DNA of 64,000 nucleotides from Acidobacteriota bacterium. GTDB lineage: Bacteria; Acidobacteriota; UBA890; WLXD01. How positions within the stretch are numbered: the stretch's first letter is position 1; every line of letters begins with the position of its first letter. The translations under genes were made by a program, and so were the position numbers. The stretch spans positions 1,696,001-1,760,000 of the forward strand of contig CBDBHB010000009.1 in assembly GCA_965205505.1 (NCBI GenBank), read 5' to 3'. The notes under the pieces were generated by a model, which saw nothing but the letters and a program-made list of their open reading frames with translations, had not been told where the DNA came from and did not search any database. Below, one piece after another: positions 1,550 through 60,742 of the stretch.

Positions 1550-1620
1550 GGCTGCCGCCCGCCGCCCCGGCAATTCCGCATTCCGCGCCGCGGCGTATCA
1601 GCAAGTAAGGAGGAGAGAGG

Positions 1621-1916
1621 TGGACCCCGAAATTCGGACAGCTTGCTAAGGTGGGATCCAGACGAAGGAGAAGGAGTCTGGAATGCCACGGGAGAGACGG
1701 AGATATCCTGCTGAGCTGAAGGCGAAGGTGGCGTTGGAGGCGCTTCGGGAGGAAGCGACAATGGCGGAGCTGGCAGCCCGCTACGATGTGCATCCGAACC
1801 TGATCGCCAACTCGAAGAAGAAGGCTCGGCAGAAGGTACTGGCTTGCGATCCAGCGATAGCTGACTCGAGCACAGGGTCGCCGCGACACGAGCGCCCCCT
1901 GCAGCGGAGAGCATAA
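1621..1916 (+). mobile_element. IS3-family remnant (left end plus truncated OrfA, 1683-1916)
   Basis: RRYPAELKAKVALEA...LAARYDVHPNLI resembles HTH_Tnp_1; upstream TGGACCCCGAAATTCGGACA resembles an IS3 inverted repeat; no OrfB. Confidence 0.7.
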
Positions 1917-2037
1917 CGCAGGTGCGCAGCGACAGACGATCGCCTAGAATCAGGGCTGTATCCTCCGTTCCAACGTGCTGGCGACGCTCTCACCACCGCC
2001 GGCCGCGCCACTTGCGTGAGTCCGAACGCGCCGCACT

Positions 2038-3450: not shown

Positions 3451-3499
3451 CCCGCCCCCCGCAAGGCTGGGACCCCCGTGCCGGGATGGGTCAGGTGGC

Positions 3500-44804: not shown

Positions 44805-45503
44805 TCAGTGGCCGTCCGAGCTCGCCGCCTCCGTCAGCGGTGGGTAGAACTGCACGAAGACGTTGTCGATCGCGCCGTGTTCCGCATGGCACGCGCCGCA
44901 GGCCGGGGTACCTACGCGACGGGCGACCCCAGACGTGTCGACGTTGAAGTAGGCCCAACCCCCGAAACGCTCGGTGTCCTTGATGGCGGCGTGGATGCCC
45001 TGAAGGTCTCCGGCGAACCAGCCGTCGCCGGCTATCGAGACGCCGGTCGTCGGCTCGCGCATCTCGAGGGCGAAGGTGGTGCCTTCCTTGAACTGCCCCG
45101 TCTGTCGGAAGTGGTGGTACGCACCAGGCTCAAGATAAACCTGGGTAAACACGCCAGGGTGATCCTGGCCGTTACGATCACCGCGCCGACGTGTTGCCGA
45201 GGTCTCACCATAGGCCAGGCCGGTGGCAGAGCCCACGAAGACCCACTCCCGGTACGCGTTTGGGAACTTCAAGTTCCCATCGACTCCGAAAGCGAGCGTG
45301 AAGGGCTCGGCGGCGAGCGCCGTCTGGCCGCTCGACGGCTCCGGGGTTGCTCGTAGCCAAGCGGCTCCGGCGCGCCCCCCCAGTTCCAGGAGGTCGACGC
45401 CGGCTCGCTTGAGCGGTCCGTACCCGGCGACGACAGCGACGGCCAGAAGACCGACGATGACGGCGCGCCCCCGATCCGGGGAGCGCTGCCGCGGGACATC
45501 CAT
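44805..45503 (-). CDS. Cytochrome P460 / c'-beta family protein
   Basis: [10 protein letters not shown]-terminal CGACH, VFVQFYP. Confidence 0.8.
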
Positions 45504-47848
45504 CAGTCTTGCCGCAGGGCGATGGCTGGGTCGACTGCTACAGCGCGGCGAGCCGGTATCACGATGGCGATCAGTGCGGCGGCGGCGAGCGCCAGTAGCG
45601 CGGTCGTGAAGGTGATGGGATCGCTCGGCTGAACCTCGAACAACAGTCCTCTGAGGACGCGACCGAAGGCGATCGCGCCGGCGAGTCCGATCGCCAGCCC
45701 GATGACCACCTGCACCATGCCCTGACGAACGACCATCCCCAGAATGCGCTGTCGCTGTGCACCTAGTGCCATCCGTAGGCCCATCTCGCGGGTTCGCTGC
45801 GTGATCGAGAACGCCATGACGCCGGCGATACCGGTTACCGTGACGATGAGCGCCAGGACGGCGAAGATGCCCAGTAGGGCGGCGGTCAGCCGCGGCGACG
45901 CTACTGCGTCGGCGCGCAGCGCGGCCATCGGATGCAGGTCGCTGATCGGGTTGGCGCCGAGAGCATAGGCGGCGTCCTTGACGCTCTGGCCAGCGCTTGC
46001 CGGATCACCCACCGTTCTTAGCATGAGCCACGTCGGCATGCCGGCCTGACCGAAGGGACGGTAGAACTCCGCCGTGACAGGTGTTTCCGGACCATAGATT
46101 CGTGTATCGCCCGCCACGCCGACGATCGTGATCCAGGTGTCGCCGTCATCGAAGCTGACGCGTGCACCGATCGGCTCCTCCTCGGACCAGTACAGCCGAG
46201 CGAGTGTCTCGTTGATTACCGCTACCGGGGCGGCGTTGGGCTCGTCGCGGCTATCTAGCAAGCGGCCGCTGAGCAGCGGAATCCCGAGGACCTCGAAATA
46301 CTCATGCGTGACGACGTTGAGGTCCAGCTGGGGTCGTGTCTGGGTCTCCTCAACGGCGCGTCCTTCGATGACGAAATCAGCCAGGTTCGGATTCGTCTGC
46401 CGGTACGGCGGCTTCTGCGTCAGCGCCGCGGTTCGCACCAAGGGACTGTCACCGACCGCAACGACCAGCTCTTGCAGGTAGTCGTGCATCTCGGTCATGT
46501 CGTTGAACGCCGTGAAGTCCAATGAAACCCGTGCGGTCAGCACGTGCTCGGTGTCGAAACCCGGGTCGATGGCTTGCAGCCGCAGGAGGCTGCGCAGCGT
46601 CAGGCCCGCACCGATCAGCAGAATGAACGCCAAGGCGACCTGCGCGACGATCAACGCACGGCGCAGCCGCAACCCACCGGTTGCGGTGGAGCGGGCTCCG
46701 TCCTTGATGGCGCCGCCGAGATCGCGCGTGCCGGGAAACGCCGGGAAGGTGCCGAAGGCGATGCCGGTGCCGAGCGAGATCAGCAACGTGAAGGCCAACG
46801 CCCAACCGTCGATGGTTACCGTCGCGGCGCGCGGCGTGTAGCGCCCGGCGAACTCGACGAGCATATCGAGTCCGACATAGGCGAACACCAAGCCGACTGC
46901 GCCACCGATTATCGCCAGGACCGCGCTCTCGGTGAACAGCTGGCGCATCAGGCGGACGCGGCTGGCGCCGAGTGCCGCGCGCACCGCCACTTCCTGTTCT
47001 CGACGCATCACGCGGGCCAAGCTCAGGTTGGCTACGTTGGCGCAGGCGATCAGCAGCACCAGCCCGGCGGTGGCCAGCAACATGAGCAGCACCGGTCGGG
47101 CGTTCCGGGTGAGCTCCTGCTTGAGGTCGACGACCCCCGCCGTGAGGTTCATCTCGGCTGGGTAGGCGTCGGGGAAGTCTGCTTCGAAGCGCGAAGCCAC
47201 GCTGGCGATCTCAGCGCTGGCGTTGCCAACCGTTGCGCCGCCCTGCAGCCGGCCGAAGACGAACAGGTTGCGGAAGGCGTTGCGGTTGCCCGCCATGTTG
47301 CGCTCTGCGTTGGCGCGGTACGGGCATGCAGAGGTTGGCATGTAGACGTCGACTGCGTTGGGGAACTGAGGAATCGGCGGTAGCACGCCTACTACGGTGT
47401 GCGGACGCGTGTTGACCTCGAACACCTGCCCGACGACGCCAGGATCTGCGCCGTGGGCGTTGCGCCAGTAGTCGTAGCTCAGAACTAGGACCGCCTCGGA
47501 GTCGAGGTCGTCCTCACCTTCCACGAACGTCCGTCCCAGCAACGGGGCCACCCCGAGCGTGTCGAAGAAATTGTCGGAAACGACACCGGCCTGGATTCGT
47601 TGCGGCTCATCCTTGCCGAGCAGCACGAAGAACATCGTGTGGTACTCGACTAACTCCTCGAAGCTGGTGGCTTGCTCACGGTAGTCGTAGAGCTCCGGGA
47701 TAGAGGCTTGGACGTTGGCGATCCGTGCGCCGGGCGCGGACTGCTCCAGCAGCACCAGCCGGTTGCCGTGCTCGTAGGGCAGAGGCCGAAGCAGTACCCC
47801 GTAGATGATGCTGAAGATAGCCGTATTGGCACCGATGCCGTCCGCCAT
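45503..47848 (-). CDS. ADOP-type ABC permease, 3' part (interrupted by island)
   Basis: GIGANTAIFS, LLIACANVANL, RAALGA, RTREMGLRMALGA, duplicated MacB/FtsX architecture. Confidence 0.9.
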   Translation of the reverse strand: MADGIGANTAIFSIIYGVLLRPLPYEHGNRLVLLEQSAPGARIANVQASIPELYDYREQATSFEELVEYHTMFFVLLGKDEPQRIQAGVVSDNFFDTLGVAPLLGRTFVEGEDDLDSEAVLVLSYDYWRNAHGADPGVVGQVFEVNTRPHTVVGVLPPIPQFPNAVDVYMPTSACPYRANAERNMAGNRNAFRNLFVFGRLQGGATVGNASAEIASVASRFEADFPDAYPAEMNLTAGVVDLKQELTRNARPVLLMLLATAGLVLLIACANVANLSLARVMRREQEVAVRAALGASRVRLMRQLFTESAVLAIIGGAVGLVFAYVGLDMLVEFAGRYTPRAATVTIDGWALAFTLLISLGTGIAFGTFPAFPGTRDLGGAIKDGARSTATGGLRLRRALIVAQVALAFILLIGAGLTLRSLLRLQAIDPGFDTEHVLTARVSLDFTAFNDMTEMHDYLQELVVAVGDSPLVRTAALTQKPPYRQTNPNLADFVIEGRAVEETQTRPQLDLNVVTHEYFEVLGIPLLSGRLLDSRDEPNAAPVAVINETLARLYWSEEEPIGARVSFDDGDTWITIVGVAGDTRIYGPETPVTAEFYRPFGQAGMPTWLMLRTVGDPASAGQSVKDAAYALGANPISDLHPMAALRADAVASPRLTAALLGIFAVLALIVTVTGIAGVMAFSITQRTREMGLRMALGAQRQRILGMVVRQGMVQVVIGLAIGLAGAIAFGRVLRGLLFEVQPSDPITFTTALLALAAAALIAIVIPARRAVAVDPAIALRQD

Positions 47849-48079
47849 AGTAATACAACTAAAGTATGTGTTTACAACAGTTTACAGGAACTTCTAGTGG
47901 ACTATCACCTCACTATTCCCACCATTAAATCTGGGAATAAAGCGAACTTCTCCGGACCTCTGGGGAGCCCTGAACACACCGAGCGCCGAGGCCGCAATCG
48001 CACCCGGGGCTGCAACTTCACCACGCATCGCTGCCTCTGATTGCCCTATCTTCGGGTCGCTAGCACAGGGAGCCGACCT

Positions 48080-48367
48080 TCACGGGCGCGCCCGAGCCGT
48101 ATCCTTCACCCGTCCTGCTCCTCCAGGTGCCCAGGGCACTGCCTGGTCCCATAGCGCCTCCAGGGCTTCGGTGTCGCCGGCAGCGCGGGCGCGTACGAGC
48201 GCTGCCAGGAGTGCCCCATCCATCCGGAACACGTCTGTGCGCCGGTACCAGGTCGGTGGCCCTCCAGCCGCGGTGAGCTCCACTGCCTGATCGGTCACGG
48301 ACAGCACACGCCGCAATGCGGCGCGCCCACCCGCCATGCGGCACACAACCAGCTGGCCTCTCTTCAT
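48080..48367 (-). CDS. Small hypothetical protein
   Basis: 95-aa ATG ORF, divergent from 48437. Confidence 0.4.
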   Translation of the reverse strand: MKRGQLVVCRMAGGRAALRRVLSVTDQAVELTAAGGPPTWYRRTDVFRMDGALLAALVRARAAGDTEALEALWDQAVPWAPGGAGRVKDTARARP

Positions 48368-48436
48368 GCAGCACGATAAGAGCTTAAGCTAGGAAGTCTC
48401 GGGTGAACCCCTAACCTACTGACGAGAGACAAGGTA

Positions 48437-48877
48437 ATGGCTATCAGCAAGGCCGTTCGTGACGGACTCCAAGCAGAACAGGCGAGCGTTGCGGATGAGA
48501 TGGCTCAGCTTGAGGCACGGCTGCAGTGGCTGACAACACGACAGACCGCCCTCCGCTTAATCCTGGAACAAGAGGCAGCACCTCCGGAACAAAAGGCCCC
48601 GCCGGACACCGGATTACGTCGACTCGGTGTTCGTGATGGGGTTCGAGCGGTACTCAAGGAAGCTGGGGCGCTGAAACCTGCCCAGGTTACGCGGAGTCTG
48701 CGCGATTGTGGCTATCAGTTCAAAGGAAAGACGAAGCCGGGTGCGCGTGTCGGACAGGAGCTTTGGGCGATGGCCAAGTCGGGCACGCTGAGCAAGAACT
48801 CCGCTGGAGAGTACTTCTTGCCCGGTGAGGAACAAGACGAACCGGAGGGCTACGCCACCGCCGCCCAGCTCCGATGA
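48437..48877 (+). CDS. Coiled-coil plus putative winged-helix protein
   Basis: N-terminal heptads, C-terminal wHTH-like pattern, RBS AAGG. Confidence 0.55.
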   Translation: MAISKAVRDGLQAEQASVADEMAQLEARLQWLTTRQTALRLILEQEAAPPEQKAPPDTGLRRLGVRDGVRAVLKEAGALKPAQVTRSLRDCGYQFKGKTKPGARVGQELWAMAKSGTLSKNSAGEYFLPGEEQDEPEGYATAAQLR

Positions 48878-49217
48878 GGATGCCTCAGCCGTTGTCCGGA
48901 ACGAATCAGCCGGCGCAGGTGCGGACAGCGGTACCGAGGCAGAAGGGTCAGGAGCATCGAGTTGACGGTCTTGAGGTGGTGCTGGTGAGTTCCACTCCAT
49001 TCGATCCGTCACTGCCGGGTGATGGACCTTAGCCCCTTCGGTGGCGCTCAGGGTCCGGTGGCGTTTGTCTTTCACGACGGCGGCACGACGCCGCTCGATC
49101 TTTCCTTTCACTTCCTCGACGCCGATGGCGGTTCCGAAGTTACCCCGGAACTGTGCGCCGCCGAGACCGGTGGCCGCGTCCATGCATCTGCTCGAAGTCC
49201 GCGACGAGAAGTCGACC

Positions 49218-49274
49218 TTAGGTTCAGGACCTAGTGGGGGCAACCCCGTGGAGGTTCAAGTCCTCTCTTGGGCA
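49218..49274 (+). pseudogene. 3' fragment of tRNA-Leu(CAG), att-site scar
   Basis: Anticodon arm TTAGG-TTCAGGA-CCTAG, long variable arm, GGTTCAAGTCC T-arm, acceptor CTTGGGCA; no 5' half. Confidence 0.8.
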
Positions 49275-49425
49275 CTTGATGTAACCTATTGACAGGTAAC
49301 GAGTTGCGGAAGGGAGCCGGCCGGCGCGGCCAGGTTCCTTTCGGCGTTTCAGGGCCAGAAAGTAACGAACAGGTAACGGGAGGCGCGTGTCCCGGCAGCG
49401 TAGCTCCGAACTGGAGCATCGCTCC

Positions 49426-49610
49426 TACTTCCTCCGGGCCGTTAGCTCAGTTGGCAGAGCACCGGCCTTTTAAACCTGCCCCGCCCGGTTTCCGGAACCC
49501 TGCAGCGACGGGCGATTCCGCGCTTTCTCCCGTCGACATGGCCACTTACGAGTTTACGTAGGGTTGCGCAGTTTACGCAGCTTTAGCTCCGCGTAAGGGC
49601 AAAACAAGGG
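49426..49610 (+). repeat. Direct repeat copy 1: 5' half tRNA-Lys(TTT) (49436-49473) plus arm-like sequence
   Basis: GGGCCGTTAGCTCAGTTGGCAGAGCACCGGCCTTTTAA followed by non-tRNA sequence conserved with copy 2. Confidence 0.9.
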
Positions 49611-49879
49611 CGGCACGAGGGGCGCGACGCGGAAGGTGCCTGCTCTCGCCTACCCTGCTAACGCGCTCGCCGAGCCGACTCGGCCCGATCCAACGGACGC
49701 TCGCCCCGTAAGATTCCTGCCGTCTAATCAACGCTCGGGTCGGCGTAAGTTCCTGCATAGAAAGAAATTGACGACGGGCGCCCTGGTGCTACAGCCGTGG
49801 GGGCTGGTGTCGAACACGCGAACAACGGCGACCCAATGGGCAACAGACGCCAACGGTCACAGCGGTAATGGATTACCGC

Positions 49880-49977
49880 GGACACTGTACGAGTACGCGT
49901 GCCACGAGGGGAACTACTCGCTCGCCAATACCCTGAGTGGCGCGCGCTATGAGGAGACCAGCGAGGAGAACAGATAG
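49880..49977 (+). pseudogene. C-terminal fragment of a YEYACHEGN-motif protein
   Basis: LYEYACHEGNYSLANTLSGAR without a plausible N-terminal region. Confidence 0.55.
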
Positions 49978-50074
49978 CGCCGGTCGCCAGCGCGGGCGAC
50001 ATGGTACGGTGGCATGGCTCGATGCGTGGATGCTGCATTCGACCAAATGAGCTCACACAGACAGGAGAACGGCG

Positions 50075-51337
50075 ATGGGCGACGATCGACACCGCGTGGA
50101 TCAGACAGGGCTACGAACCCCCGACAACACGCCGACGATGCCGCGAGCAGGCCTGGCACTGGCGGGAGTGCTGGCGACTGTTCTGCTGGTGACGGTGTCT
50201 GTGCTGAGCACGACCGCGACCGTCGACGCAGCGTCGCATCCGCCGATCCAGGCGCAACAGTCGGGCGATGCCGCGATGCCCGACACCGATTCGATGAGCG
50301 ATGAGGAGTTCGTAACGCTGCTGGCGTCAGCAGAGCTGGGCCCCTACGCGCGTGAGGATGCTCTCGCCGATACGTTCTCGCTAGAGCGCGCCGTCAGCTT
50401 CCTCGATCGGGTTGCCCTGACATGGGGTGAGAAGTACGGCTGCGTCACCTGCCATACGAACGGTTTGTATCTCACGGCACCGCCCGAGATCTTCGGCGAG
50501 CGCCGTGCATTCGAGATCGTACACAGTCAGGCTGCCCGTTTCGTGCGCTCCTGGCGCGCCAACGACGTGCCTGGCAACGATGCGCCCGCCCCAGACGTGC
50601 CGGACGTCGTTGGCACGTCTGCGTTTCTGGCCATCAACGAGGCCCAGTCCGGTGAAAAAGAGCTCAGCGACATCACCGTGGAGGCGCTCGACCGCGCCTG
50701 GTCGCTACAGGACGAAGGGGGCCACTGGACTGGGTTTGTATCCAACTGGCCGCCGTTCTACGATCGCCAGTGGCCCGTCACGCTGATGGCGATCGCTACC
50801 GGCATGGCTCCGGGCGACTACGCCAGCACTGACGCCGCCGTGGAGGGGATGCGCAGGATTCGCGACCACATCGACGCGAACCCGCCCGAGTTCGCCCACA
50901 ACCGCGGCATGCTGCTGTGGGCCGGCAGCGTCAACGAGGGGCTGGTCAGCGACGCCGATCGCCAACGCTGGATCGACGAGCTTCTCGATCTGCAGCGTGA
51001 CGACGGTGGCTGGGCCTCGGGAAAGCTCGGCGTATGGCGTATGCGCAAGGGGCTCGACACCGATCCCCCGGTTACTGTCGAAAGTGATGGCTACGGCACC
51101 GGCTTCGTCATGTACGTCCTGCGACAGGCCGGCGTGCCGGCGTCGCACGCCGCGATCCAGCGCGGTGTCGGCTGGTTGAAGGCGAACCAGCGGGCCGGAG
51201 GGTACTGGTGGACCCAGTCCATACGCAATAGCTTCACAACCTCGAACTTCCTGACGCACGCCGGCACGACGTTCGCGGTCAAGGCGCTCGCGGCCTCTAC
51301 GATCGAAACGGGAGGCGTCGCCAACACCGAGCGTTGA
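50075..51337 (+). CDS. Exported prenyltransferase/squalene-cyclase repeat protein with CxxCH
   Basis: QW-like repeats LQDEGGHW, LQRDDGGW, NQRAGGYW; CVTCH; N-terminal hydrophobic segment. Confidence 0.75.
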   Translation: MGDDRHRVDQTGLRTPDNTPTMPRAGLALAGVLATVLLVTVSVLSTTATVDAASHPPIQAQQSGDAAMPDTDSMSDEEFVTLLASAELGPYAREDALADTFSLERAVSFLDRVALTWGEKYGCVTCHTNGLYLTAPPEIFGERRAFEIVHSQAARFVRSWRANDVPGNDAPAPDVPDVVGTSAFLAINEAQSGEKELSDITVEALDRAWSLQDEGGHWTGFVSNWPPFYDRQWPVTLMAIATGMAPGDYASTDAAVEGMRRIRDHIDANPPEFAHNRGMLLWAGSVNEGLVSDADRQRWIDELLDLQRDDGGWASGKLGVWRMRKGLDTDPPVTVESDGYGTGFVMYVLRQAGVPASHAAIQRGVGWLKANQRAGGYWWTQSIRNSFTTSNFLTHAGTTFAVKALAASTIETGGVANTER

Positions 51338-51427
51338 GCGCCACCCCCGAACGTGCTGATCGTCGGCGTTGACACTCGGCCGTCCGCCGTAGCGAAGACT
51401 CGTAACGCCGTGCCGCGCGAGCGCTTA

Positions 51428-51610
51428 TACTTCCTCCGGGCCGTTAGCTCAGTTGGCAGAGCACCGGCCTTTTTAAACCTGCCCCGCCCGATTCCGGGAA
51501 CCCTGCAGCCATCGGCGTTTACGTGTTTTCCATAGCTGACATGGCCACTTACGAGTTTACGTAGGTTTGCGCAGTTTACGCAGCTTTAGCTCCGCGTAAG
51601 GGCAGAACAA
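51428..51610 (+). repeat. Direct repeat copy 2: 5' half tRNA-Lys (51438-51476) plus arm-like sequence
   Basis: Matches copy 1 with one extra T in the loop and a diverged middle; overlapped at its start by TATACT. Confidence 0.9.
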
Positions 51611-51906
51611 TGGGCGTTTCGCGAAAGAGGCAGGGCTCGGTCGTAGGTCCCGGACCGTCCGTTGCGGTCGTACCGCCGCAACTCGCCGTCGTCACGACCG
51701 CCCGGCAATCGAATACCGCTCTGGCCGGGCGGTCAGTGGTGCCAGCCGTTACTTCGGAACCCCGAGGCGCCGTCTGAGCTACGGCCTCAACCGGGCCATT
51801 CCCCCGAGAACGTGGTCCATCAAAACGACGGATCAGTTGCGGTCGCCTCGGGGGTCGCCGATCCCGCCAGTCCGCCGTTCGAGCCCCTCGCGTTACCGTG
51901 CAGGGC

Positions 51907-53109
51907 TCACCAGATTTCAGCCTCTACGAGGATCCTGGGAGGGTCATAGTCATCCGCTCCCGGGTGAGTCTGGAGGATCTCGCGCAGGCGACGGACCGCC
52001 AACAAGGCTGCGTGAACCAGATGGTACTCGTTGTCCATGAGGGTAGGGTCATACTCATTCTCATCGAGAGCATGCGCTGGTCTGTTTCGCTCATTCCTGA
52101 CGTCCTTTAGCGCGCTGATGACGACGCACCGCTCTTCAGTCGCGTGTTCAAAAGCGACCTCCAGAAACTCCCCCAGCAGCCGGATCGTTCCTTTCTCCTT
52201 AATGATGACCCCGTCGTCAGTCTCGGTTCTTGTCTGCAGATCCACCTTGCCCCTGAAGAACCTCTTGTTCAGGTTGTCGGACAGCATCTTGTCGGCCGTG
52301 AGCGCGAGGTCCTGGTAACTTCGGAGGGTGGGCTTGGTTATCCAGGCGAACTGCGCCGGCGCCCCGCTGGCGAAGTTCTCGCGGAACAGAGGAGGCTCTC
52401 TGATCAGTTCACAGATGACATTGATCTGTTGAATCTCCTGGACGACGGCCTCGAAGGGAGATAGGCGGTTCGCAAACTCCCCTTCAACGCTCGTCTTGAA
52501 GTAATCCGAGTCCAGGAGCAGCCCCTCCCGGTCGACCTCGTATGATTTCCAGTGCAGCTGATGCTCAACGTTCGCCTCTGCGAGATCTGCGAGAATCGCC
52601 GTTACAAACCGCGCGCTCCCCCCGTCGCTGTACGCTGCCCCCCACCGAACGTAGATCTTCCCCGGGTCTGCTAGGCCGCGCTCACGAATATAGTCGCTCC
52701 GCCGGACAACGAAGCCGGAAACCCCGGACTCGTCGAACCGATATCGCGGATCATCGCGGTACCGTTCGAGCGCTTGGCGATCGAAGAAGAAATCCTCAAC
52801 TTGTGACCCACTGTGCCGCAGCGCCTTTGTGTAGGGGCCCAGCTCGTCACCTGCCATGGGATCTCTAGGCTCAAGAAGCAATGCGGTCGGGAACACCCAT
52901 AGCTCGTCTCGCCCTTCGGGGATGCGAACGAGACCTTCTTCCGCGAGAGCTCTGACTGCGTCAGAAACAGCTTCTGAGGCTCTCGACGAGTGTGAGCGCT
53001 CGTCGACCAGTGTTACGAGCTTCCAGAGTGGGATGCCACAATGAGGGTGGCCCTCGAGCCACGAGTAGGCGATCGCATCGGCTACCACTTCCTTGAGGTG
53101 GCGGGTCAC
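51907..53109 (-). CDS. Hypothetical protein with C-terminal HEPN-like RxxxxH motif
   Basis: 400 aa, visibly lower GC, helical C-terminus with RNRPAH. Confidence 0.6.
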   Translation of the reverse strand: MTRHLKEVVADAIAYSWLEGHPHCGIPLWKLVTLVDERSHSSRASEAVSDAVRALAEEGLVRIPEGRDELWVFPTALLLEPRDPMAGDELGPYTKALRHSGSQVEDFFFDRQALERYRDDPRYRFDESGVSGFVVRRSDYIRERGLADPGKIYVRWGAAYSDGGSARFVTAILADLAEANVEHQLHWKSYEVDREGLLLDSDYFKTSVEGEFANRLSPFEAVVQEIQQINVICELIREPPLFRENFASGAPAQFAWITKPTLRSYQDLALTADKMLSDNLNKRFFRGKVDLQTRTETDDGVIIKEKGTIRLLGEFLEVAFEHATEERCVVISALKDVRNERNRPAHALDENEYDPTLMDNEYHLVHAALLAVRRLREILQTHPGADDYDPPRILVEAEIW

Positions 53110-53536
53110 CTCTCTTCCTCCTTTAGATCAATGGGGATGGCGAGCGCTCGCGCTTGACTCGCCGTGTCTGAGATCCGCATTGGCGAACCCCCTTGGTTGA
53201 CGGTGGCGCGCCGCGGATCGGCTAAACGCTTCCACGTGCATGGCTGCTACTCTGCCGGGAAGCTCGGGAAGCTCGGGAAGCGACAACCCTACTCTTGGAG
53301 CCGGCTAGACAACACCCTTGTTCCCTCTCGCTTACGTGATCTCTGCCCTCGTGCTGCCCTCACGTTGGATCGCTGCGCTGGCCTGGATGTGAGTACCCGA
53401 GGCTTCGCAAGGCTCGCAGTCGATCCGCTCACCGCGCTACGGTTGCGCAATGAGCAAGCGTCTTGAAGGTAGTGAACCCCTTCACAGATCTGGTGTACCG
53501 GTTGGTGCTACGGCCAACGATTTCTGGCAGTGGTCG

Positions 53537-54796
53537 TGACCTGACCCCACGGTTAGTACCACGTCTTATCTCAGTAACTCGGTGCTGACAAGGGGTTGTT
53601 GAGGCCGGCGAAGCGGAGCGTAGCCGGCTTCAACAACAGCGCCTCCGGGGCCGGTGGTCGGTAGCCCAACGAGCTGTGCGGTCGCATGCGGTTGTACTGC
53701 TGCCTCCATCTCTCGATCAGAACCTTTGCCTCCTTGAGCGTGTAGAAGATCTCGCCGTTGAGCAGCTCGTCTCGGAGCTTGCCGTTGAAGCTCTCCACGT
53801 AGCCGTTCTCCCACGGCGAGCCCGGCTCGATGAACAGCGTGCCCACACCGAGCCTACCGAGCCAGTCGCGAACCGCCTCGGCGGTGAACTCCGGTCCGTT
53901 ATCGGACCGGATGTGCTCAGGTATGCCCCGGTGCACGAACAACCACCCGAGCCGCTCGAGCACGTCCTCACAGTTGAGCTTCCGTGCCACGTCGATCGCC
54001 AGGCTTTCTCGTGTGTACTCATCGACGATCGTCAGCAGCCTCATAGCCCGACCCTCGTGCGTCCGGTGATGAACGAAGTCATACGCCCAGACGTGATCTT
54101 TGCGCTGTGGTCGCAGCCGGATGCACGAGCCATCGCTGAGCCACAGCCGGGCTCGTTTGGGCTGCTTTGTCGGTACTTTCAGCCCCTCACGCCTCCAGAT
54201 ACGCTGCACTCGTTTGTGGTTCACCCACCAGCCCTCCATACGCAACAACGCCGTCACTCGCCGATACCCGTAGCGCCCGTATTGTCGGGCTAGATCCACG
54301 ATCCGCTCCGTCAACATCTGCTCATCGCCCGGTTCTCTTGGCATGTACCTGTGTGTCGTGCGTGGTTGTTTCAGTACCCGGCACGCCCGCCTCTCGGAGA
54401 CGCCCAGCCGCCCCCGTACATGCGCCACCGCCTCGCGCCGTCGAGCTGGGCTCAGAAGTTTCCCTCCGCGACTTCCTTCAGGATCGACAGGTCGAGCTCT
54501 TTCTCCGCCACCAGTTTCTTGAGCCGGGCGTTTTCTTTCTCCAGCTGCTTGAGCCTTCTGGCCTGGTTGACCTTCAGCCCCCCGTACTCCCGCCGCCACC
54601 GATAGTAGGTGTGCTCGGTGATCGCTAGCTTGCGGCAGGCATCCTTGACCGTCCCGCCTTGCGCCAGCTCCACTTCAGCCTCCCGGAGCTTGCGTACGAT
54701 CTGCTCGGCGCTGTGCCTCTTCGTCGGCATTCTGACCTCCCCTTTTCGACCCAGATCGTGAGATTACCTCTGGATCCGTTTTGGGGGGTCAGGTCA
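53537..54796 (-). mobile_element. IS3 family element, OrfA 54452-54730 and overlapping OrfB ending at 53571
   Basis: 12-bp IR TGACCTGACCCC; DDE motifs WAYDF, SDNGPEF, ESFNG; GGGAAAC at the OrfA/OrfB overlap. Confidence 0.95.
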
Positions 54797-54937
54797 CGTA
54801 CGCGACGGCCATGCCCTGCAGGGCGGTCGCAACACCGCCGAACGCCACCGTCGTCTTCTGACCGCAGCGGCGATAGCGAGCGTTGCCAAGATATGGGGAC
54901 CCGCTAATTCGCTTCAGCTCGCTATCCTCTAAGTGCC

Positions 54938-55174
54938 TCATCGGCAACCCTCATCGCGCGCCATCGCTCGCACTTCGTCTGCGTCAGCAGCGCTCACGAT
55001 CCACTCCGCGGCGGTCAGCGTCTCGAGGTCCCGGCCCCACCATTGCCGGAGATTCTCGAGTGCCTCGTCCTCTGGCCAGCGCTCACCGTCGAAGTCCGCC
55101 ACCAGGGCCACCGCACCGAGGAACTGCTGCCGCGAGCCGATCATCCCGTACAACTCCGCGAACTCGTAATCCAC
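54938..55174 (-). CDS. Small hypothetical protein
   Basis: Protein-like 78-aa part of the ORF downstream of the iterons. Confidence 0.35.
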   Translation of the reverse strand: MDYEFAELYGMIGSRQQFLGAVALVADFDGERWPEDEALENLRQWWGRDLETLTAAEWIVSAADADEVRAMARDEGCR

Positions 55175-55187
55175 CCGAAGAGGCCAC

Positions 55188-55424
55188 TGTCGCACGGTTG
55201 TCGCAGTGATTCGAGCGGCTGCTGCACCCTCCTGTCGCACGGTTGTCGCAGGATTTGTCGCAGGCTCGGGGACAGCGGAATTCCGCTGCAACACCCGTAG
55301 TGCCGCCTCTTTCGCCCTCACGCCCTGCCTCCTTGTGTCGCACGGTTGTCGCACCGCTTTGTCGCACCGGCACGCATTCGTTGTCGCACAGTCGCACCCC
55401 CCTATGGGGGTGCAGACTGCGACA
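55188..55424. repeat. TGTCGCA iteron cluster, putative replication origin
   Basis: Nine direct TGTCGCA, one variant and one inverted copy around GCACCCCC-CTAT-GGGGGTGC. Confidence 0.75.
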
Positions 55425-55448
55425 CGTGCAACGGCGGGACGGAACGCC

Positions 55449-56852
55449 CTATTTGTCATCGAGGCTTCCCTCGGCGATCGCTGCTCGCCTGTGCCTGTAG
55501 ATGGTTGCTCGATGGAGACGGAGCTCGGAGGCCACAGCGCCCGGAGACAAACCATCGTTTAGCAACTCAATGACACGCTGCCGTGTCTGACCTTCGACGT
55601 CGGCGACGAGCCAGCTCATGAAGCCGTTCTCGTCGGTCGCGAGTTGCGCTTCGAATGAAGCTGCGTCGCCGCCGCTGAGCCCCCTGGCTTTCTCGAACCG
55701 AACCTCGAACCGGGCGCCATCCTCAGCCCGGTAGTCGCCCGGGCGCTGAAGCTTGACCACCACATCGAGAACATCCTCCCGGCGAGAGGTACCGCGCTGA
55801 GCACCGTTCTTGCCAGCGTGGTGCACGAGGAGGACGGCCACTCCTCGCCGCCTCAACCCCAGTAGAAGATCCTGAGCGGGTCCCCATGCTTCGGCCTCGT
55901 TCTCCGGACCGGCTCCGAACAACGTGGAAATATTGTCGAAGACTACGAGCTTGGCGTCCCCAAGGATCGCGTCGATGAGGCGCTCCCCCTCCGGGCTATC
56001 GAGCGCAGGCACCGGGATCTCCTGGGCGTCCGCGGCGAGGATTCGGAACGGGATTCTCGCGGTGTCGACGTCCGGAGCCAGCCCGGCGAGGAGATGACTC
56101 GTGCGCGTCTGTAAAGTTTCGATAGGCATCTCGCCATCGACGTAAAGCACAGGCGCCGGCTCAGCTGCCTTCCAGCCCATCACCGTTTGCCCGGTCGCAA
56201 CGCCGAGCGCAATGGAGAGCGCTACCCACGTCTTGCCGGTCCCGCGATTCGCGTACAGCAGGGCCAAGTCCTTCTCATAGAACCAAGGCGACAAGAGGGG
56301 CTGGCGAGGGGGTAGACGAAGTTCGAGATAGTCCGCGAGTTCATACACCCGGAACCGTTCCGCGGCACGGCCCGCACCGTTTGCGATCGCCGCGATGGCC
56401 TGCTGGGCTCCCAAGAGGACTACCTCAGGATCCGCGCCCGGGTCCATCGCCATGTTGCGGATAGTCTCTGCCTCGGCGATGGCGTCGCGCAGGATCGCTT
56501 TGTCCTTGATGCTGCGCGCGTACTGCTCGACGTTGGCCGCCGCCGGGATACCGTCGATGAGGCCGGAGATGTACGCCGCGCCGCCGGCGCGCTCGAGCAC
56601 GTCGCGTCGGGTCAGCTCCTCGCGCAGCGTCACCGTGTTGATAGTCTCCGAGCGCCTCGAGATCGCGCCCATTGCCTCATAGATCAGCCGATTGGCGTCG
56701 CCGAAGAAGTCGTCCGGAGTCAGGATCTGCGTGGCGGTGTTGAACGCCTGGTTGTCGAGCAACACCGCGCCGAGGATCGCCCGCTCGGCCTCGTCGAAGT
56801 GCGGCAGCGCGCGCTCCTCGTGCCGTGTCCGGACTTGACGCAGCCGCCCCAC
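55449..56852 (-). CDS. DnaB N-terminal plus AAA_25 (RepA-like) helicase with C-terminal HTH
   Basis: EAERAILGAVL, ANRGTGKT, YVDGEM, VFDN, VHHAGK, RGTS. Confidence 0.85.
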   Translation of the reverse strand: MGRLRQVRTRHEERALPHFDEAERAILGAVLLDNQAFNTATQILTPDDFFGDANRLIYEAMGAISRRSETINTVTLREELTRRDVLERAGGAAYISGLIDGIPAAANVEQYARSIKDKAILRDAIAEAETIRNMAMDPGADPEVVLLGAQQAIAAIANGAGRAAERFRVYELADYLELRLPPRQPLLSPWFYEKDLALLYANRGTGKTWVALSIALGVATGQTVMGWKAAEPAPVLYVDGEMPIETLQTRTSHLLAGLAPDVDTARIPFRILAADAQEIPVPALDSPEGERLIDAILGDAKLVVFDNISTLFGAGPENEAEAWGPAQDLLLGLRRRGVAVLLVHHAGKNGAQRGTSRREDVLDVVVKLQRPGDYRAEDGARFEVRFEKARGLSGGDAASFEAQLATDENGFMSWLVADVEGQTRQRVIELLNDGLSPGAVASELRLHRATIYRHRRAAIAEGSLDDK

Positions 56853-57103
56853 TACGCGACCTCGCCTCGGTCGCCGACACAGGCGGTACCGTTGAGCCCG
56901 TTGGGCTGTCGAATGTCCAGACCCCGGCCCGCTAGGGCCTCCAGGACCGCCTCCTGCATGCATCCGGCGTGACAGTGCAACAAGCACCTGCCCGTCGCGC
57001 TCAGGCTCGGGTTGCGGTCCTTGTGCGCCGGGCGGCGGCACATGCCGCCATGTCCGTTGGATCGGCGCTCGAGCGTGCGGACGATCTGCTCCAGGCTGGC
57101 CAC
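56852..57103 (-). CDS. Stand-alone primase zinc-binding-like domain
   Basis: PAHKDRNPSLS...LLHCHAGC. Confidence 0.65.
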   Translation of the reverse strand: MASLEQIVRTLERRSNGHGGMCRRPAHKDRNPSLSATGRCLLHCHAGCMQEAVLEALAGRGLDIRQPNGLNGTACVGDRGEVA

Positions 57104-57104
57104 G

Positions 57105-57329
57105 TCACGTTGACGGCTGGCGAGAGGCAGGCTGATCGCCCCCCGGCAGCGCGGTCGGACGGCTCGCTAACCACGCCTTGATGTCCGCCAGCCGCCAGGC
57201 TACGGCACGGCGGCCGATACGCACCGGACGGGGAAACTCCCCCGCATCCATCGCAGCATAGATCGCTGACCTGGAAAGTAGCGTGATCCGCTCGACTTCA
57301 GGACGCTTGATGAGGACTTGCTGCTCCAT
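57105..57329 (-). CDS. alpA: AlpA family regulator/excisionase
   Basis: LSRSAIY...GEFPRPVRIGRRAVAW. Confidence 0.92.
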   Translation of the reverse strand: MEQQVLIKRPEVERITLLSRSAIYAAMDAGEFPRPVRIGRRAVAWRLADIKAWLASRPTALPGGDQPASRQPST

Positions 57330-57440
57330 GAGGAACCTCCTTGGTTTTGCTGGTTCCTCCCACTGTGCAGGGGTACCTCTGGCCTGTCATGGGTGCGAGT
57401 TTCCGAAAACTCGCCCCCTCGGCCAGCGTGGCGCAACCGA

Positions 57441-58091
57441 CTACCGATTACCCCGCCATATGTCGCGCATGGTGCCGTACGTTTTCACAGCGTGGTCTCT
57501 TTCGGCGAGCACCTGGGCCACAATGTCGCAGGCGGAGGCACGCTCGGTAATTTCATTGCGCGTCTCAGGCATACCGCACTTCGTAAGCAGGTGGACCGCC
57601 CATCGGATTACGTCATTTCGCGCGGCCATCTTGGGGGCCGGCCCTCTGCTGCCCTTGCCGCCTTTCGGTCGCGGACACCGGCCGTGGATTACGTCGCCCA
57701 CCCAACGGTGCAGGGCTTTCCCGAGTGGACGTTCGCCTTCGGTGCGCACGAACGTCCACGCCAGCGCGTCCCAATCTACGGGGTTAGTACGTGATCCTTC
57801 GATAGTGGATTCGATATCCTCGCGCAGGGTCTTGTCTTTGCCCCGAAGAAACAACGCAGCGTACATCCATACGTTGTAGTTGTGGGCGATCGCTGGGTTT
57901 CTCCACGACGGGTCCAGGTCGAGCCACAAGCCCACAAGCGCACGCGCATCGTCGTTGGAAATGCGCTCTTTCTTATCAATGAATCGTGCCACGTGCTCGC
58001 GGTGTTGACGGTGAAACTCATCGTTCCGGGCTTTGTCTAGGACGGCACGCACAGGCAACACTGGTTGCCTCGCGCGCTCTTCTTCACCCAT
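57441..58091 (-). CDS. Hypothetical island protein
   Basis: ORF between integrase and AlpA, protein-like composition. Confidence 0.5.
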   Translation of the reverse strand: MGEEERARQPVLPVRAVLDKARNDEFHRQHREHVARFIDKKERISNDDARALVGLWLDLDPSWRNPAIAHNYNVWMYAALFLRGKDKTLREDIESTIEGSRTNPVDWDALAWTFVRTEGERPLGKALHRWVGDVIHGRCPRPKGGKGSRGPAPKMAARNDVIRWAVHLLTKCGMPETRNEITERASACDIVAQVLAERDHAVKTYGTMRDIWRGNR

Positions 58092-58395
58092 GAGCAAGCA
58101 CCGGCACGATGGTCTGGATCGGGGCGGGCAACCTGGAGTGCGGCCCGAGCCCACTGATCAATGCGTACAGCAGCATCAGGCCCAGGATGACGGCCGGGAT
58201 CAGCCTCAGCACGCGGCCCGAAAGGTTGATCATGGGCGGGCGGAGATCGCCCATCCGCACGTTGCCGAGCTCACCTCTGTCCATATCATCTCTCCGTAGG
58301 CACGGGGGCGGTGGGGTAGACACGTCTTCAGGGTAGCGTGCGTGGCCGTGTGCCAACCCACTTCAGCAGGCAGGGAACCGACCCGGTACTGCTCC

Positions 58396-59649
58396 CTAGA
58401 CAGGGCGCAGCATCGGCACCACCTTGCCGCCCTCAGCACTCAGGTAAGCGGCCCAGTCTTCCATCAGCTGCCGGCGCCGCTCCAGCAGGTCGGAGCGCGC
58501 ATAGGCCGCCTCGGTCGGGTCGCGCACCGCATGTGCCAGCGCCGCCTCCATGACCGCCCGCGGTGCGTTGGTGCACTCCGCCGCCCAGTCCCGGAACGAT
58601 GAGCGAAACCCGTGCGGCACCGCTTCAATGCCCAGCTGCCGCAGCACCCGGGAAAGGGTCGCGTCCGCCAGCGGCCTGCCGGCCCGTGCACCGGGAAACA
58701 CCAGCCCCTCGCCATCCCTGAGCCCCCGCGCCTGGCGCAGGATCTCCATTGCCCGGCCCGATAGCGGCACCCGGTGGGCCCGGTTCGATTTCATGCGCTC
58801 GGGTGCAAGAGTCCACTCCCTCGCCTCCAGGTCCATCTCCTGCCAGGTAGCCAACCGCACCTCGCCGGAGCGGGCCGCCGTCAACACCAGAAACTCCAGG
58901 GCCAGCTTCACCACCCCGGAGGCATCCGAAGCCCGTACCGCCTCGATCGCACCGTCCACCTCGGCATGCGGCAACGCCCGCATATGCTGTCGCCGCTTGC
59001 GGTGCCGTGGCAGCGCCTGGGTGATCGCCTCACCAGCCGGGTTGTCGCCACGGTACCCCTGCGCCATGGCCCACTTCATCACCGCACCGATGCGCGCCCG
59101 CACCCGCCGTGCGGTCTCGGCCTTGTCATGCCAGATCGGACCCAGTACCTCCAACACCTCGGCCGTCGTCACCTCCGACACCGGCATCTCACCGATGCGC
59201 CCGTACGCATAGGTGCGCAACTCCGTTTTCCATTGCGCCGCATACTTGGCGTTGCGCCACCCGGGGCGGTGCATCTCATACACCTTGGCCGCTGCTTGCG
59301 CGAACGTCGGCATGCCCTCGGCCCGGCGCTTGTCTGTCAGCGGGTCACCGCCGGCACGGGCCAGCTTGCGGTTGGCAAATGCCACCTCGCGCGCCTCCGA
59401 CAGCGACACCAAGGGGTAGCCTCCGAGACCCAGTTCCCGGCGACGGCCCTGGATCACGATCCGCTGTACCCAGCTGCGCGCTCCGCTCGGGATCACGTTC
59501 AGGTACAGGCCGTGTCCATCGCAGTACCGGCCCGGCTTCATTACCGTGCGTACGAACGCCGCCGACAGGGCCCGCTCCGGGTGCTTGCCGCTCTTGCGCC
59601 GAGGGCTGGGTTTCGGTGCAGTTGCTTGCGCATCGGCGATATTCTGCAT
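58396..59649 (-). CDS. P4-like tyrosine integrase
   Basis: DGHGLYL arm-binding domain, ARSGE, MK, HGFRSSFRDW, LAH, AYARSD. Confidence 0.95.
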   Translation of the reverse strand: MQNIADAQATAPKPSPRRKSGKHPERALSAAFVRTVMKPGRYCDGHGLYLNVIPSGARSWVQRIVIQGRRRELGLGGYPLVSLSEAREVAFANRKLARAGGDPLTDKRRAEGMPTFAQAAAKVYEMHRPGWRNAKYAAQWKTELRTYAYGRIGEMPVSEVTTAEVLEVLGPIWHDKAETARRVRARIGAVMKWAMAQGYRGDNPAGEAITQALPRHRKRRQHMRALPHAEVDGAIEAVRASDASGVVKLALEFLVLTAARSGEVRLATWQEMDLEAREWTLAPERMKSNRAHRVPLSGRAMEILRQARGLRDGEGLVFPGARAGRPLADATLSRVLRQLGIEAVPHGFRSSFRDWAAECTNAPRAVMEAALAHAVRDPTEAAYARSDLLERRRQLMEDWAAYLSAEGGKVVPMLRPV

Positions 59650-59753
59650 CCCCCTCTTATTCCGCCATTAAAGGCGGGAATGTAGCGGATTGTCCGGGAA
59701 CACGCAAGATGGACGAATACTCGTAACTGTCTGACTCTACTGATGCTTAGGGA

Positions 59754-60125
59754 CTAATAGGTCAACTTAGGAATGCACCGGATCTGAACGATGGCAGAGA
59801 TGCCGAGCGCCAATGTGAGCACCGCCGTGGCGGTGAATCCCCAGCTCTTGCCGAGCGTCCTAAGTGCGTAGCGGATGTCTTGTATCAGCATGTCGAAGTG
59901 GTTCCCCTTGCGCTCGTCGCGGCACTCTTCCTTGAAGCGCTGCGTGGCGCCGAAGCTCATGCGAGCCTTCCGCTGGGCTTCCTCGTGGCCCAGGCCCTGG
60001 TGTCGGTACTTGTCGGTTTCCATCTCGAGGTGGAACGACAGCTCGTCGTCGAGCTCTCGATCGTCCGCCCGTCGCCCGTCGCCGCGCAATCGCTCCAGCA
60101 AGTCTCCCCAAGCTCTCTTGCCCAT
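59754..60125 (-). pseudogene. ADOP permease 5' part, truncated at the att site
   Basis: [28 protein letters not shown], then 14 island-derived residues. Confidence 0.9.
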
Positions 60126-60134
60126 CCGTAGCCT

Positions 60135-60467
60135 CTAGACCGTTTGCAGGATCGCGCTCACCGCTCGCGAGAGCCGATCCCAGTTGCGTGCTTCATCCGC
60201 CAGCTGCTCTTTTCCCATGGTGGTCAGTCGGTAGTACTTGGCGCGTCGGTTGTTCTCCGAGGTGCCCCACTCCGCGCCGATGTAGCCGTGCCGTTGCAGT
60301 CGATGGAGGGCCGGATAGAGCGAGCCTTGGTTGACTTGCAGAACGTCCCTGGACATCTGCTGGATACGCTGCGAGACGCCCCAACCATGCTGCGGGGCAA
60401 GTTGCAGGGTTTTGAGGATGAGCATGTCCAGGGTGCCCTGGAGCAGGTCGACGTTGGCCTTGGTCAT
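60135..60467 (-). CDS. PadR family regulator
   Basis: QGTLDMLILK, GSLYPALHRL, NNRRAKYY. Confidence 0.95.
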   Translation of the reverse strand: MTKANVDLLQGTLDMLILKTLQLAPQHGWGVSQRIQQMSRDVLQVNQGSLYPALHRLQRHGYIGAEWGTSENNRRAKYYRLTTMGKEQLADEARNWDRLSRAVSAILQTV

Positions 60468-60742
60468 TGGCTCTTCTCGCGTAGTTCGTCTACGGGAAAT
60501 CGATGGTCATCGTGTCCAGCACCTTGACGCTCATGCGCGCCCGTTCCTCTAGACACTCGACAAGAGTGACCCGGGCTCTTGTCGCGTGTCAAGGGGAGTC
60601 GAGGATTTTGCTGCCGGAAGCGGTTATCGGCGCCCTCATCGCCGCCAGCATCGACTCCCACGAGGCAACTGCAATGCGTTCGTGCGCCCATCCTGGACAG
60701 TACGGTGGCAGCTACGCTCGATCCCCAGCGCTGCTGCATAGC

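Follow-up and report, generated by a model that had tools for sequence, protein, structure and literature searches.

An integrative element with a P4-like tyrosine integrase interrupts an ADOP permease gene at a motif common to many paralogs in an Acidobacteriota genome

Site-specific integrases are usually seen as one element at one site, mostly a tRNA gene. The P4-like tyrosine integrases of phages and genomic islands carry an arm-binding N-terminal domain and usually act at tRNA or tmRNA genes. Elements that split a gene, such as skin in sigK, the nifD element, the comK prophage and SpyCI in mutL, are each present once, in a particular gene, and excise in dependence on the physiology of the host. 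In Tn916 and CTnDOT the coupling sequences at the two ends are generally unrelated, and homology is not required. According to the report on them, dusA-specific integrases are closest to Rci and act on one single-copy gene by way of semi-conserved repeats of 21 bp, and the 5' end of the gene is replaced by one that the island brings (PMC4482086). The plasticity-zone elements of Helicobacter pylori, as described in a second report, are moved by XerT, a XerCD-like tyrosine recombinase, with an 8-nt duplicated motif AAAGAATG (PMC2952849). The locus described here lies in a stretch of 64,000 nt (the window, whose positions are used throughout) of Acidobacteriota bacterium GCA_965205505.1, contig CBDBHB010000009.1, positions 1,696,001-1,760,000. 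An element of 11,958 bp at 47841-59798 interrupts an ADOP permease gene, which breaks off after ...LTLALGI and resumes with GANTAIFS. It is very probably a ~12-kb integrative mobile element which, by means of its own P4-like tyrosine integrase, enters the DNA of the motif in the first transmembrane helix (TM1) of ADOP permeases by conservative site-specific recombination.

The source genome (G000; 5.98 Mb in 9 contigs, with the window in contig C9) was compared with G001 to G004, all four other genomes of the genus. Genome copies of the element were located by tblastn and blastn and oriented on their integrase, and the junctions were then compared; copies are named by contig and position in kb (e.g. 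C9_2186). Protein domains were called from Pfam, NCBIfam and PHROG profiles, PADLOC and PDB matches, and RNAs with Rfam and ARAGORN. Contigs of four public runs from four studies (X10, X13, X14 and X1) were compared with window positions 46800-60700; these are consensus contigs, from which rare variants are dropped.

The sequence GATGCCG (+ strand) stands at both 47834-47840 and 59799-59805 and forms an exact 7-bp repeat, CGGCATC in the direction of the gene. The left junction, attR (47825..47848), reads ATTGGCACC-GATGCCG-TCCGCCAT, that is B' arm, core and P core arm. The right junction, attL (59791..59814), reads ATGGCAGA-GATGCCG-AGCGCCAAT, that is P' core arm (+ strand), core and B arm. The N-part of the permease (59806..60125, minus strand) comprises residues 1 to ~107 up to the core, with a perm_prefix_1 match and positions 1-34 of the ADOP model TIGR03434; its open reading frame (ORF; 60125 down to 59754) reads ...AVLTLALGI, followed by 14 element-encoded residues and a stop. 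The C-part (45503..47833, minus strand; GANTAIFS... to the stop) matches positions 27-803 of the same model with 830.8 bits, above the cutoff of 622.3, and contains MacB_PCD and FtsX domains. Its frame reads GIGANTAIFSIIYGVLL..., i.e. (M-A-D-)GIGANTAIFS..., down to 45503, and the far-end arm of the element provides an ATG (47848-47846, minus strand) in frame with it (M-A-D-G-I-G-A-N-T). No sigma-70-like promoter was found at either junction, by a consensus that may not apply to Acidobacteriota. Since no promoter-like site was found and half of the TM1 helix is gone, the paralog, broken in the middle of TM1, is taken as very probably inactivated despite the in-frame ATG.

The orthologous PadR-ADOP locus is uninterrupted in all four congeners. 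The N- and C-flanks are adjacent there and overlap by the core only, with a DNA identity of 95-96% in G004 and 78-83% in G001-G003, and the congener genes continue through the site to ...(I/V)IYGV... (4/4 genomes). Because the flanks are contiguous in all four congeners, the N-part and the C-part are one gene and not halves of different paralogs, a possibility that the initial annotation had named as a refutation. Removal of 11,965 bp in silico yields a single frame of 885 aa without a stop, colinear with the intact orthologs and in agreement with the earlier expectation that excision would restore a gene of ~885 aa. The placement of an integrative element with a P4-like integrase at LALGIGANT, also made in that annotation, is borne out by the 7-bp repeats, the domain matches given below and the four empty sites.

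An assembly artefact that joined a repeat to the permease gene was considered, as the element ends are repeated eight times in the genome, where assemblers can err. Both junctions are, however, bridged in the occupied state by contigs of all four runs (46800-47849/47908 and 59757/59778-60700), and an exact 7-bp repeat with matching halves of one gene is what a real integration predicts. Misassembly is to be excluded with near certainty because contigs from four studies cross both junctions independently, and chance is excluded because of the empty sites and because the same type of junction recurs at other paralogs.

This recurrence is extensive. The integrase-side end is present in eight copies in G000 (92-100% identical over 160 bp) and in a ninth in G004, whose integrase is 98% identical. 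Six of the nine adjoin the ADOP motif, in different paralogs and in two genomes, and this count is what sustains the earlier view that conserved ADOP codons serve as the landing site. Five adjoin an ADOP N-part ending ...LALG(I/L) (the window copy, C9_2186, C9_918, C8_465 and the G004 copy) and one, C8_640, an inverted ADOP C-part; the other three (C9_331, C8_550, C9_3140) adjoin non-ADOP DNA. Far ends adjoin ADOP C-parts beginning GIGAN... in the window copy, at C9:3151931 and at C2:18296, and LGAST... in G004; that of C8_550 (C8:534927) adjoins an inverted ADOP N-part (...FFSIVAILTLALGI). At least six distinct ADOP paralogs have been struck, and up to eight if two orphan C-parts are counted. 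As ADOP motif sites make up about 2 in 10,000 genome bases, the recurrence is not due to chance. G000 holds ~50 ADOP-type loci (50 tblastn matches starting within the first 40 residues of the C-part), four with C-parts that start at an element end and 46 unoccupied at the motif; one of the matches, C8:38202, lacks the motif and looks spurious, so that the tally of 46 free sites includes one probably false row.

The second clean event is found in G004, where an element of 14,067 bp with an exact 7-bp repeat CGGTTTG occupies the target CTGGCCCT-core-GGGGCCAG in an ADOP-type gene (...TLTLALG|LGASTGVF). Other copies have a more involved history, and G000 is reshuffled around its element copies. 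A gene termed ADOP_y, contiguous in G004, is split in G000 into an N-part that ends at C8:534927 (far end) and a C-part that starts at C8:640360 (integrase end); the halves are ~105 kb apart, and the orientation is opposite to that of the window copy. The interval between them (C8:534928-640358) holds two copies of the element, both oriented alike, and also a junction to a gene other than ADOP (365-aa ORF); it may have arisen as a composite element, by duplication or by translocation. The N-part at C9_2186 has its partner C-part now on contig C8, beside a copy of an IS3-family insertion sequence (IS; C8:625009). For the N-part at C8_465, no partner C-part was found in G000. Copy C9_918 is bracketed by a direct duplication of 542 bp (the 3' end of a PadR gene plus the N-part up to the core; 98% identity, 532/542) at C9:908050-908593 and C9:918731-919274, of which one repeat lies at the integrase end and the other is joined to an intact ADOP gene. 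It is an aberrant derivative that leaves the gene whole; it may be an element variant carrying a replacement 5' part, or a product of aberrant excision and homologous re-entry.

Two further observations concern the surroundings of these copies. At C8:352700-352745 (L049), only 2 bases stand in place of the core between the far end and the initial 12 bases of the integrase-side end (TCTGCCATCGTC), beyond which the DNA is unrelated; the arrangement looks like what is left of an attP-like site after loss of its core. Upstream of the C9_2186 N-part (L015:1097-1130, C9 ~2186275-2186308), a stretch of ~34 nt matches more than 100 places in G002-G004, often as nearby inverted pairs; it is a dispersed repeat of the genus, similar to repetitive extragenic palindromic sequences or miniature inverted-repeat transposable elements.

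The flanks of all events have YGGC-N13-GCCR in common, which mirrors the element ends (ATGGCGGA ... TCTGCCAT). In ADOP genes this palindrome derives from the codons of Leu-Ala (YTG GCN) and Ala-Asn (GCC AAY). The geometry alone matches the genome 5,522 times, both strands counted; because it is so common, a further determinant of specificity is needed. The strict pattern TGGC-N3-CGGCATC-N3-GCCA has five matches, three of which are att junctions of occupied copies and two of which are free, one of these in an ADOP gene. The idea that the gene family offers many landing sites therefore fails for the exact core CGGCATC, and it stands only because the core varies. Fourteen of the 46 free ADOP-type sites carry YGGC-N13-GCCR in register, four with a core identical to one already used and 12 with a core within 1 nt of one. 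In the G004 allele of the window's ADOP gene, CTAGCGCT replaces the TGGC arm and the site is unoccupied; from this it follows that synonymous codon choice makes or breaks a site.

The cores differ between events, yet they match or differ by 1 nt within each of the four paired events: CGGCATC/CGGCATC in the window, CGGTTTG/CGGTTTG in G004, TTGATTG/GTGATTG at C9_331 and GGGGATC/GGTGATC at ADOP_y (gene direction). Most of them equal the native target sequence, as judged from orthologous empty sites. The C-side core of ADOP_y has one base foreign to the native GGGGATC (the native site in G004), and the core of C9_918, CGAAATC, differs by one base from the native CGGAATC. The foreign 7-mer of ADOP_y, which reads GATCACC in integrase direction, is found next to copy C9_3140 as well, and an intact look-alike site exists at C2:7956. 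Such a pattern is expected from conservative strand exchange over a 7-bp overlap that is nearly homologous. It speaks against fill-in target duplications, because those would be exact, and against homology-independent coupling sequences, because those would be unrelated at the two ends.

A transposition-like insertion, with the 7-bp repeats as target-site duplications from staggered cuts and fill-in, would agree with a repeat that varies from event to event and mostly equals the native target. It is nevertheless very unlikely. The element's one transposase is that of an independent IS, of which 20 more copies lie elsewhere, two of the four paired events differ by 1 nt where fill-in gives exact repeats, and the odd base at ADOP_y is absent from the native site. 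Moreover, the same 7-mer GATCACC stands at two unrelated loci, and insertions are confined to the palindromic YGGC-N13-GCCR context that mirrors the ends of the element.

Site-specific integration is thus the preferred explanation, and it probably proceeds as follows. The attachment site is the DNA for the motif L-A-L-G-I-G-A-N in the first transmembrane helix of ADOP permeases, whose Leu-Ala and Ala-Asn codons provide two inverted half-sites of the core type (YGGC and GCCR). The 13 bp that separate these half-sites contain the 7-bp crossover core, which consists of the last base of the Leu codon and the Gly and Ile codons. The attP is laid out alike, as ATGGCGGA-core-TCTGCCAT, a layout presumably inherited from relatives with cores like the 3' end of tRNA-Ser (TCCGCCA). 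Strand exchange would require near-identity of the 7-bp core; with attP and attB one base apart, one junction would carry the core of the element and the other that of the target after replication. The attP core could then drift and thereby open new paralogs, so that the element would move among them, occasionally in inverted orientation or into look-alike sites of other genes. Insertion within TM1 would very probably inactivate the paralog struck, which may be tolerable given ~45 other paralogs, and deleted copies would be mobilised in trans.

A bolder version of this scheme is put forward tentatively, and we lean against it rather than towards it. Here the integrase would read the palindromic arms only and the core would be rewritten at each near-matching paralog, so that the element would walk through the genome with the synonymous variation of a 50-member family as stepping stones. 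If true, a conservative tyrosine recombinase would reach many copies per genome as a transposon does, inserting either way round. Copies with a deleted integrase would be carried along in trans, and the presence of several copies would give rise to large rearrangements like the 105-kb split of ADOP_y.

The integrase (58396..59649, minus strand; 417 aa) has the three-domain P4-like architecture, with Pfam matches to Arm-DNA-bind_3 (DUF4102; 67.3 bits), Phage_int_M (95.5 bits) and Phage_integrase (59.4 bits), all above cutoffs. Its N-terminal domain matches solved CP4-like integrase domains (PDB 3jtz and 3ju0). The Pfam catalytic model is covered at positions 3-168 of 172, and the match to lambda Int stops at residue 336. 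The motifs AARSGE (258), MKSNRAHRVPL (286), HGFRSSFR (346), LAH (371) and AAYARSD (381) are taken by us to contain the putative catalytic R-K-H-R-H-Y residues. The closest annotated phage integrase is that of Ralstonia phage RSY1 (43% identity); such phage relatives are annotated as arm-type-domain proteins and stand beside AlpA-type excisionases.

Upstream DNA was compared for 34 loci of integrase homologs, with L032 excluded (upstream identical to that of L031) and L073, L077, L081 and L084-L089 outside the set (upstream DNA too short). Homologs at 38-81% identity do not adjoin ADOP motifs. GGCGGA occurs 170-275 bp upstream of the integrase match in 15 of the 34 loci, in several as TGGCGGA-N7-(T/G)CCGCCA, and one of the 15 (L004) lies at a tmRNA gene. 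In three further loci (L037, L040, L075), a complete tRNA-Ser ending ...TCCGCCA is found at the same distance of 170-275 bp. The ADOP-targeting attP, TGGCGGA-CGGCATC-TCTGCCA, keeps the architecture of these relatives, which also upholds the geometry of inverted core arms around 7 bp given in the initial annotation. On the simplest reading, this looks like a tRNA-Ser-type P4-like integrase lineage in which the arms were kept and the core was changed.

The integrase clade with at least 97% identity is present only in G000 and G004 (41 relatives, 26 order-level genomes). The prediction that homologous integrases would be flanked by split ADOP genes holds within this clade (6/9 ends), and it does not hold for homologs at 38-81% identity. 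The integrase search of species-representative genome contigs gave 18 loci with a best identity of 55%, none at an ADOP motif, and that of metagenome contigs gave 19 loci with a best identity of 56%; the end pattern had no match in the metagenome contigs, and no relative was found in viral contigs. The collections searched may omit records very near the source genome. A second integrase clade, 80-81% identical, is found in G000 (C9:164812-166017 and C7:155851-157056) and G004 (C15:1744463-1745668) behind a shared end, GGCGGAG(G/A)(G/A)GGTGACCGC, which looks like a tRNA 3' end in reverse complement. These loci represent a sister family of elements that has another target.

Of the integrases in G000, four are full length (97.8-100% identical), one is degraded and three have a common in-frame deletion of 216 bp. 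The deletion takes out residues 222-293 and with them the AARSGE box and the MKSNRAHR hairpin region, which we presume to be the catalytic Arg and Lys regions, and the three deleted copies are probably non-autonomous. The presence of the same dead integrase at three different sites suggests mobilisation in trans, with gene conversion as an alternative.

Several points weigh against integrase-driven movement at the ADOP motif as set out above. Clean local events number just two, the window copy and the G004 copy, and the other copies have unmatched flanks, absent far ends or rearranged partners; some of the apparent recurrence events may be secondary rearrangements and not independent integrations. 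Beyond two genomes of one genus no close relative (>81% identity) was found, so that target specificity rests on a single lineage. Cores of different copies differ by at least 3 bases (CGGCATC, TTGATTG, GATCACC), and drift by single bases needs many unseen steps. The positions of cleavage are deduced from the repeat alone. No excised circle or restored attB was seen, and no 47839-59806 link is present among the 15 joints listed for the four runs (consensus contigs); the element is only presumed to be active today.

Part of this evidence would suit a family of fossil copies, in which one old integration burst was followed by segmental duplication and homologous recombination and the elements are immobile now. 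Many copies are indeed rearranged, truncated or equipped with a dead integrase, and the excised form is missing from the joints listed. This explanation is unlikely, as the four full-length integrases are nearly identical, occupancy differs between G000 and the 95%-identical G004 at both clean sites, and the flanks come from separate paralogs, each with its native core, a state that could not result from copying a single insertion.

The initial annotation had further suggested that the element could act as a reversible gene switch like skin or the nifD element. Such a domesticated, regulated switch would turn the permease on by condition-dependent excision. The restored 885-aa frame and the intact int and xis candidate of the window copy are in line with it, and the site is occupied in the contigs of all four runs, which indicates an insertion stable in the sampled populations. 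There is no single dedicated site, however: the nine integrase-side ends lie in different paralogs and at non-ADOP sites of two genomes. The element retains a replication gene and variable cargo, was itself struck by an IS, and has three copies with dead integrases. The orthologous gene is plainly intact in all four congeners, one paralog among ~45 others is an unlikely regulatory target, and the joints listed, all from consensus contigs, hold no excised form. A switch is therefore highly improbable, and the suggestion is given up in favour of a multicopy mobile element.

The attachment arms and gene content of the window copy are in keeping with such an element. The P' arm region (59650..59798, minus strand; 149 bp from the core to the start of int) is 92-100% identical in all eight copies and contains the inverted repeat ATTCCGCC-ATTAAA-GGCGGGAAT at 59659-59681. 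The P arm region (47841..48100, minus strand) ends in TCCGCCATA (= ATGGCGGA on the gene strand) and contains the inverted repeat TATTCCCA-CCATTAAATC-TGGGAATA at 47914-47939. A similar inverted repeat of the type ATTCCC..TTAAT..GGGAAT is found in both arms and in every copy, even in a far-end subtype that is 71-75% identical; these repeats are candidate arm-type or accessory-protein sites.

Next to the integrase is a conserved backbone ORF (57441..58154, minus strand; 237 aa), which is 53-79% identical in five other copies and reduced to a 27-aa fragment in a sixth; it had no Pfam, PHROG or PADLOC match. It is followed by a candidate AlpA-type excisionase or transcriptional regulator (57105..57329, minus strand; 74 aa; phrog_2790 E=2e-12, phrog_66 E=8.7e-12). 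The replication protein (55449..57041, minus strand) was identified by Pfam, NCBIfam and PHROGs and combines a DnaB N-terminal domain, AAA_25 (RepA-like ATPase) and a C-terminal helix-turn-helix; its true start may be later within the ORF. The module of int, conserved ORF, alpA-type xis and DnaB-N/AAA_25 replication gene resembles that of an integrative mobilizable element or a phage satellite. PADLOC had no match for seven element ORFs, and no PHROG structural or packaging match to phage capsid or packaging genes was obtained in the 10 ORFs scanned.

An IS3-family IS of 1,260 bp (53537..54796, minus strand; orfA 54452-54730, orfB 53571-54599; HTH_Tnp_1, rve and rve_3) is a secondary insertion. 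A further 20 stretches of G000 align with it at ≥97.6% identity over ≥1,200 bp, most of them at 99-99.9%, and because of these matches it is regarded as a later, independent insertion outside the element backbone; the high identities point to a very recent burst. The cargo includes an ORF of 400 aa (51907..53109, minus strand) that occurs only in this copy and has no family match in Pfam, NCBIfam, PHROG or PADLOC. A second cargo ORF of 420 aa (50075..51337, plus strand) has a weak terpene-cyclase-type repeat match (Pfam SQHop_cyclase_C, E=1.2e-4, 21.7 bits, below the cutoff of 26.1) and a 93% copy at C8:1121741. Two small ORFs lie at the far end (48080-48367, minus strand, 95 aa; 48437-48877, plus strand, 146 aa), and the DNA of the 95-aa ORF region is kept in all far-end subtypes.

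The cargo also contains a truncated tRNA-like piece (49436..49487, plus strand), a 5' half with a TTT anticodon loop that reaches 18.5 bits with the Rfam tRNA model (gathering 29). ARAGORN detected no complete tRNA in the element, and Rfam gave nothing at its gathering threshold. Loose ends of other contigs continue as a T-arm after 49473. The segments 49230-49487 and 49860-49975 comprise a tRNA-3'-end-like piece, the truncated tRNA 5' half and an ORF tail ending ...YEYACHEGNYSLANTLSGARYEE; in the four runs their contig depths are 300-3,700 vs ~5-50 nearby. They look like pieces that were captured from chromosomal DNA of wide conservation. In runs X13 and X14, contigs of the C-part fit the window for just 9 bases into the far end (47841-47849) and then continue with 129 and 486 dissimilar letters, and these samples may hold a variant element with a different interior at the same site.

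The upstream partner of the ADOP gene is a PadR-family regulator of the acidobacterial type (60135..60467, minus strand; NCBIfam TIGR03433, 154.1 bits, cutoff 101.8). Beyond it, a further ADOP-type gene at 61158-63026 (plus strand) is directed away from the interrupted gene. Its motif LLTLGLGVGATV is at C9:1757566; the site has no GGC arm and is unoccupied.

A P4-like lineage appears to have left its tRNA-type site for a motif repeated dozens of times, which would offer many safe landing places and permit a multicopy lifestyle. This bears on the evolution of integrase specificity, with arms kept and core changed, on paralog families becoming sinks of mobile DNA in Acidobacteriota, and on multicopy elements seeding rearrangements. 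Specificity by short arms together with a freely variable 7-bp core could serve as a retargetable tool, if the core rule is true.

Compared with known systems, the element has the three-domain architecture of P4-like integrases, the adjacent AlpA-type excisionase, inverted half-sites around 7 bp and relatives at tRNA-Ser and tmRNA genes. It differs from them in an attB that lies in a protein-coding gene motif of ~50 paralogs and not at the 3' end of a tRNA or tmRNA gene, and in being multicopy in one genome with a core that differs between copies. The combination of int, an alpA-type regulator and a primase/helicase-type replication gene is also that of phage satellites (P4-like or phage-inducible chromosomal island-like), from which the element is set apart in that no helper-hijacking capsid or packaging gene was matched in 10 ORFs and no relative was found in viral contigs. 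With skin, the nifD element, the comK prophage and SpyCI it shares the site-specific splitting of a gene that precise excision would restore, whereas it is multicopy and occupies many paralogs and off-target sites. Tn916 and CTnDOT likewise have many insertion sites per genome with crossover sequences that vary by site; in the ADOP element, in contrast, the 7-bp core at one end differs from that at the other by no more than 1 nt in 4/4 paired events.

The dusA-specific integrases, as their report describes them, are also a family of tyrosine integrases; their site is a conserved stretch within a protein-coding gene, close to its 5' end, and excision re-forms the gene. The present integrase, by contrast, is of the P4-like type, acts on a family of paralogs and leaves the gene broken, with the 542-bp 5' duplicate of C9_918 as the sole exception. 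XerT elements, by the second report, are again tyrosine-recombinase elements with a short duplicated target motif and hence more than one possible site; the XerT motif is a fixed short word, whereas in the present element the palindromic arms are fixed and the 7-bp core is variable. The literature searched, which did not cover subscription journals, yielded no description of an integrase that targets permease genes of the ADOP, FtsX or MacB type. The enzyme family and the kind of element are thus ordinary, while the paralog-family target and the copy number are unusual and the variation of the core is informative.

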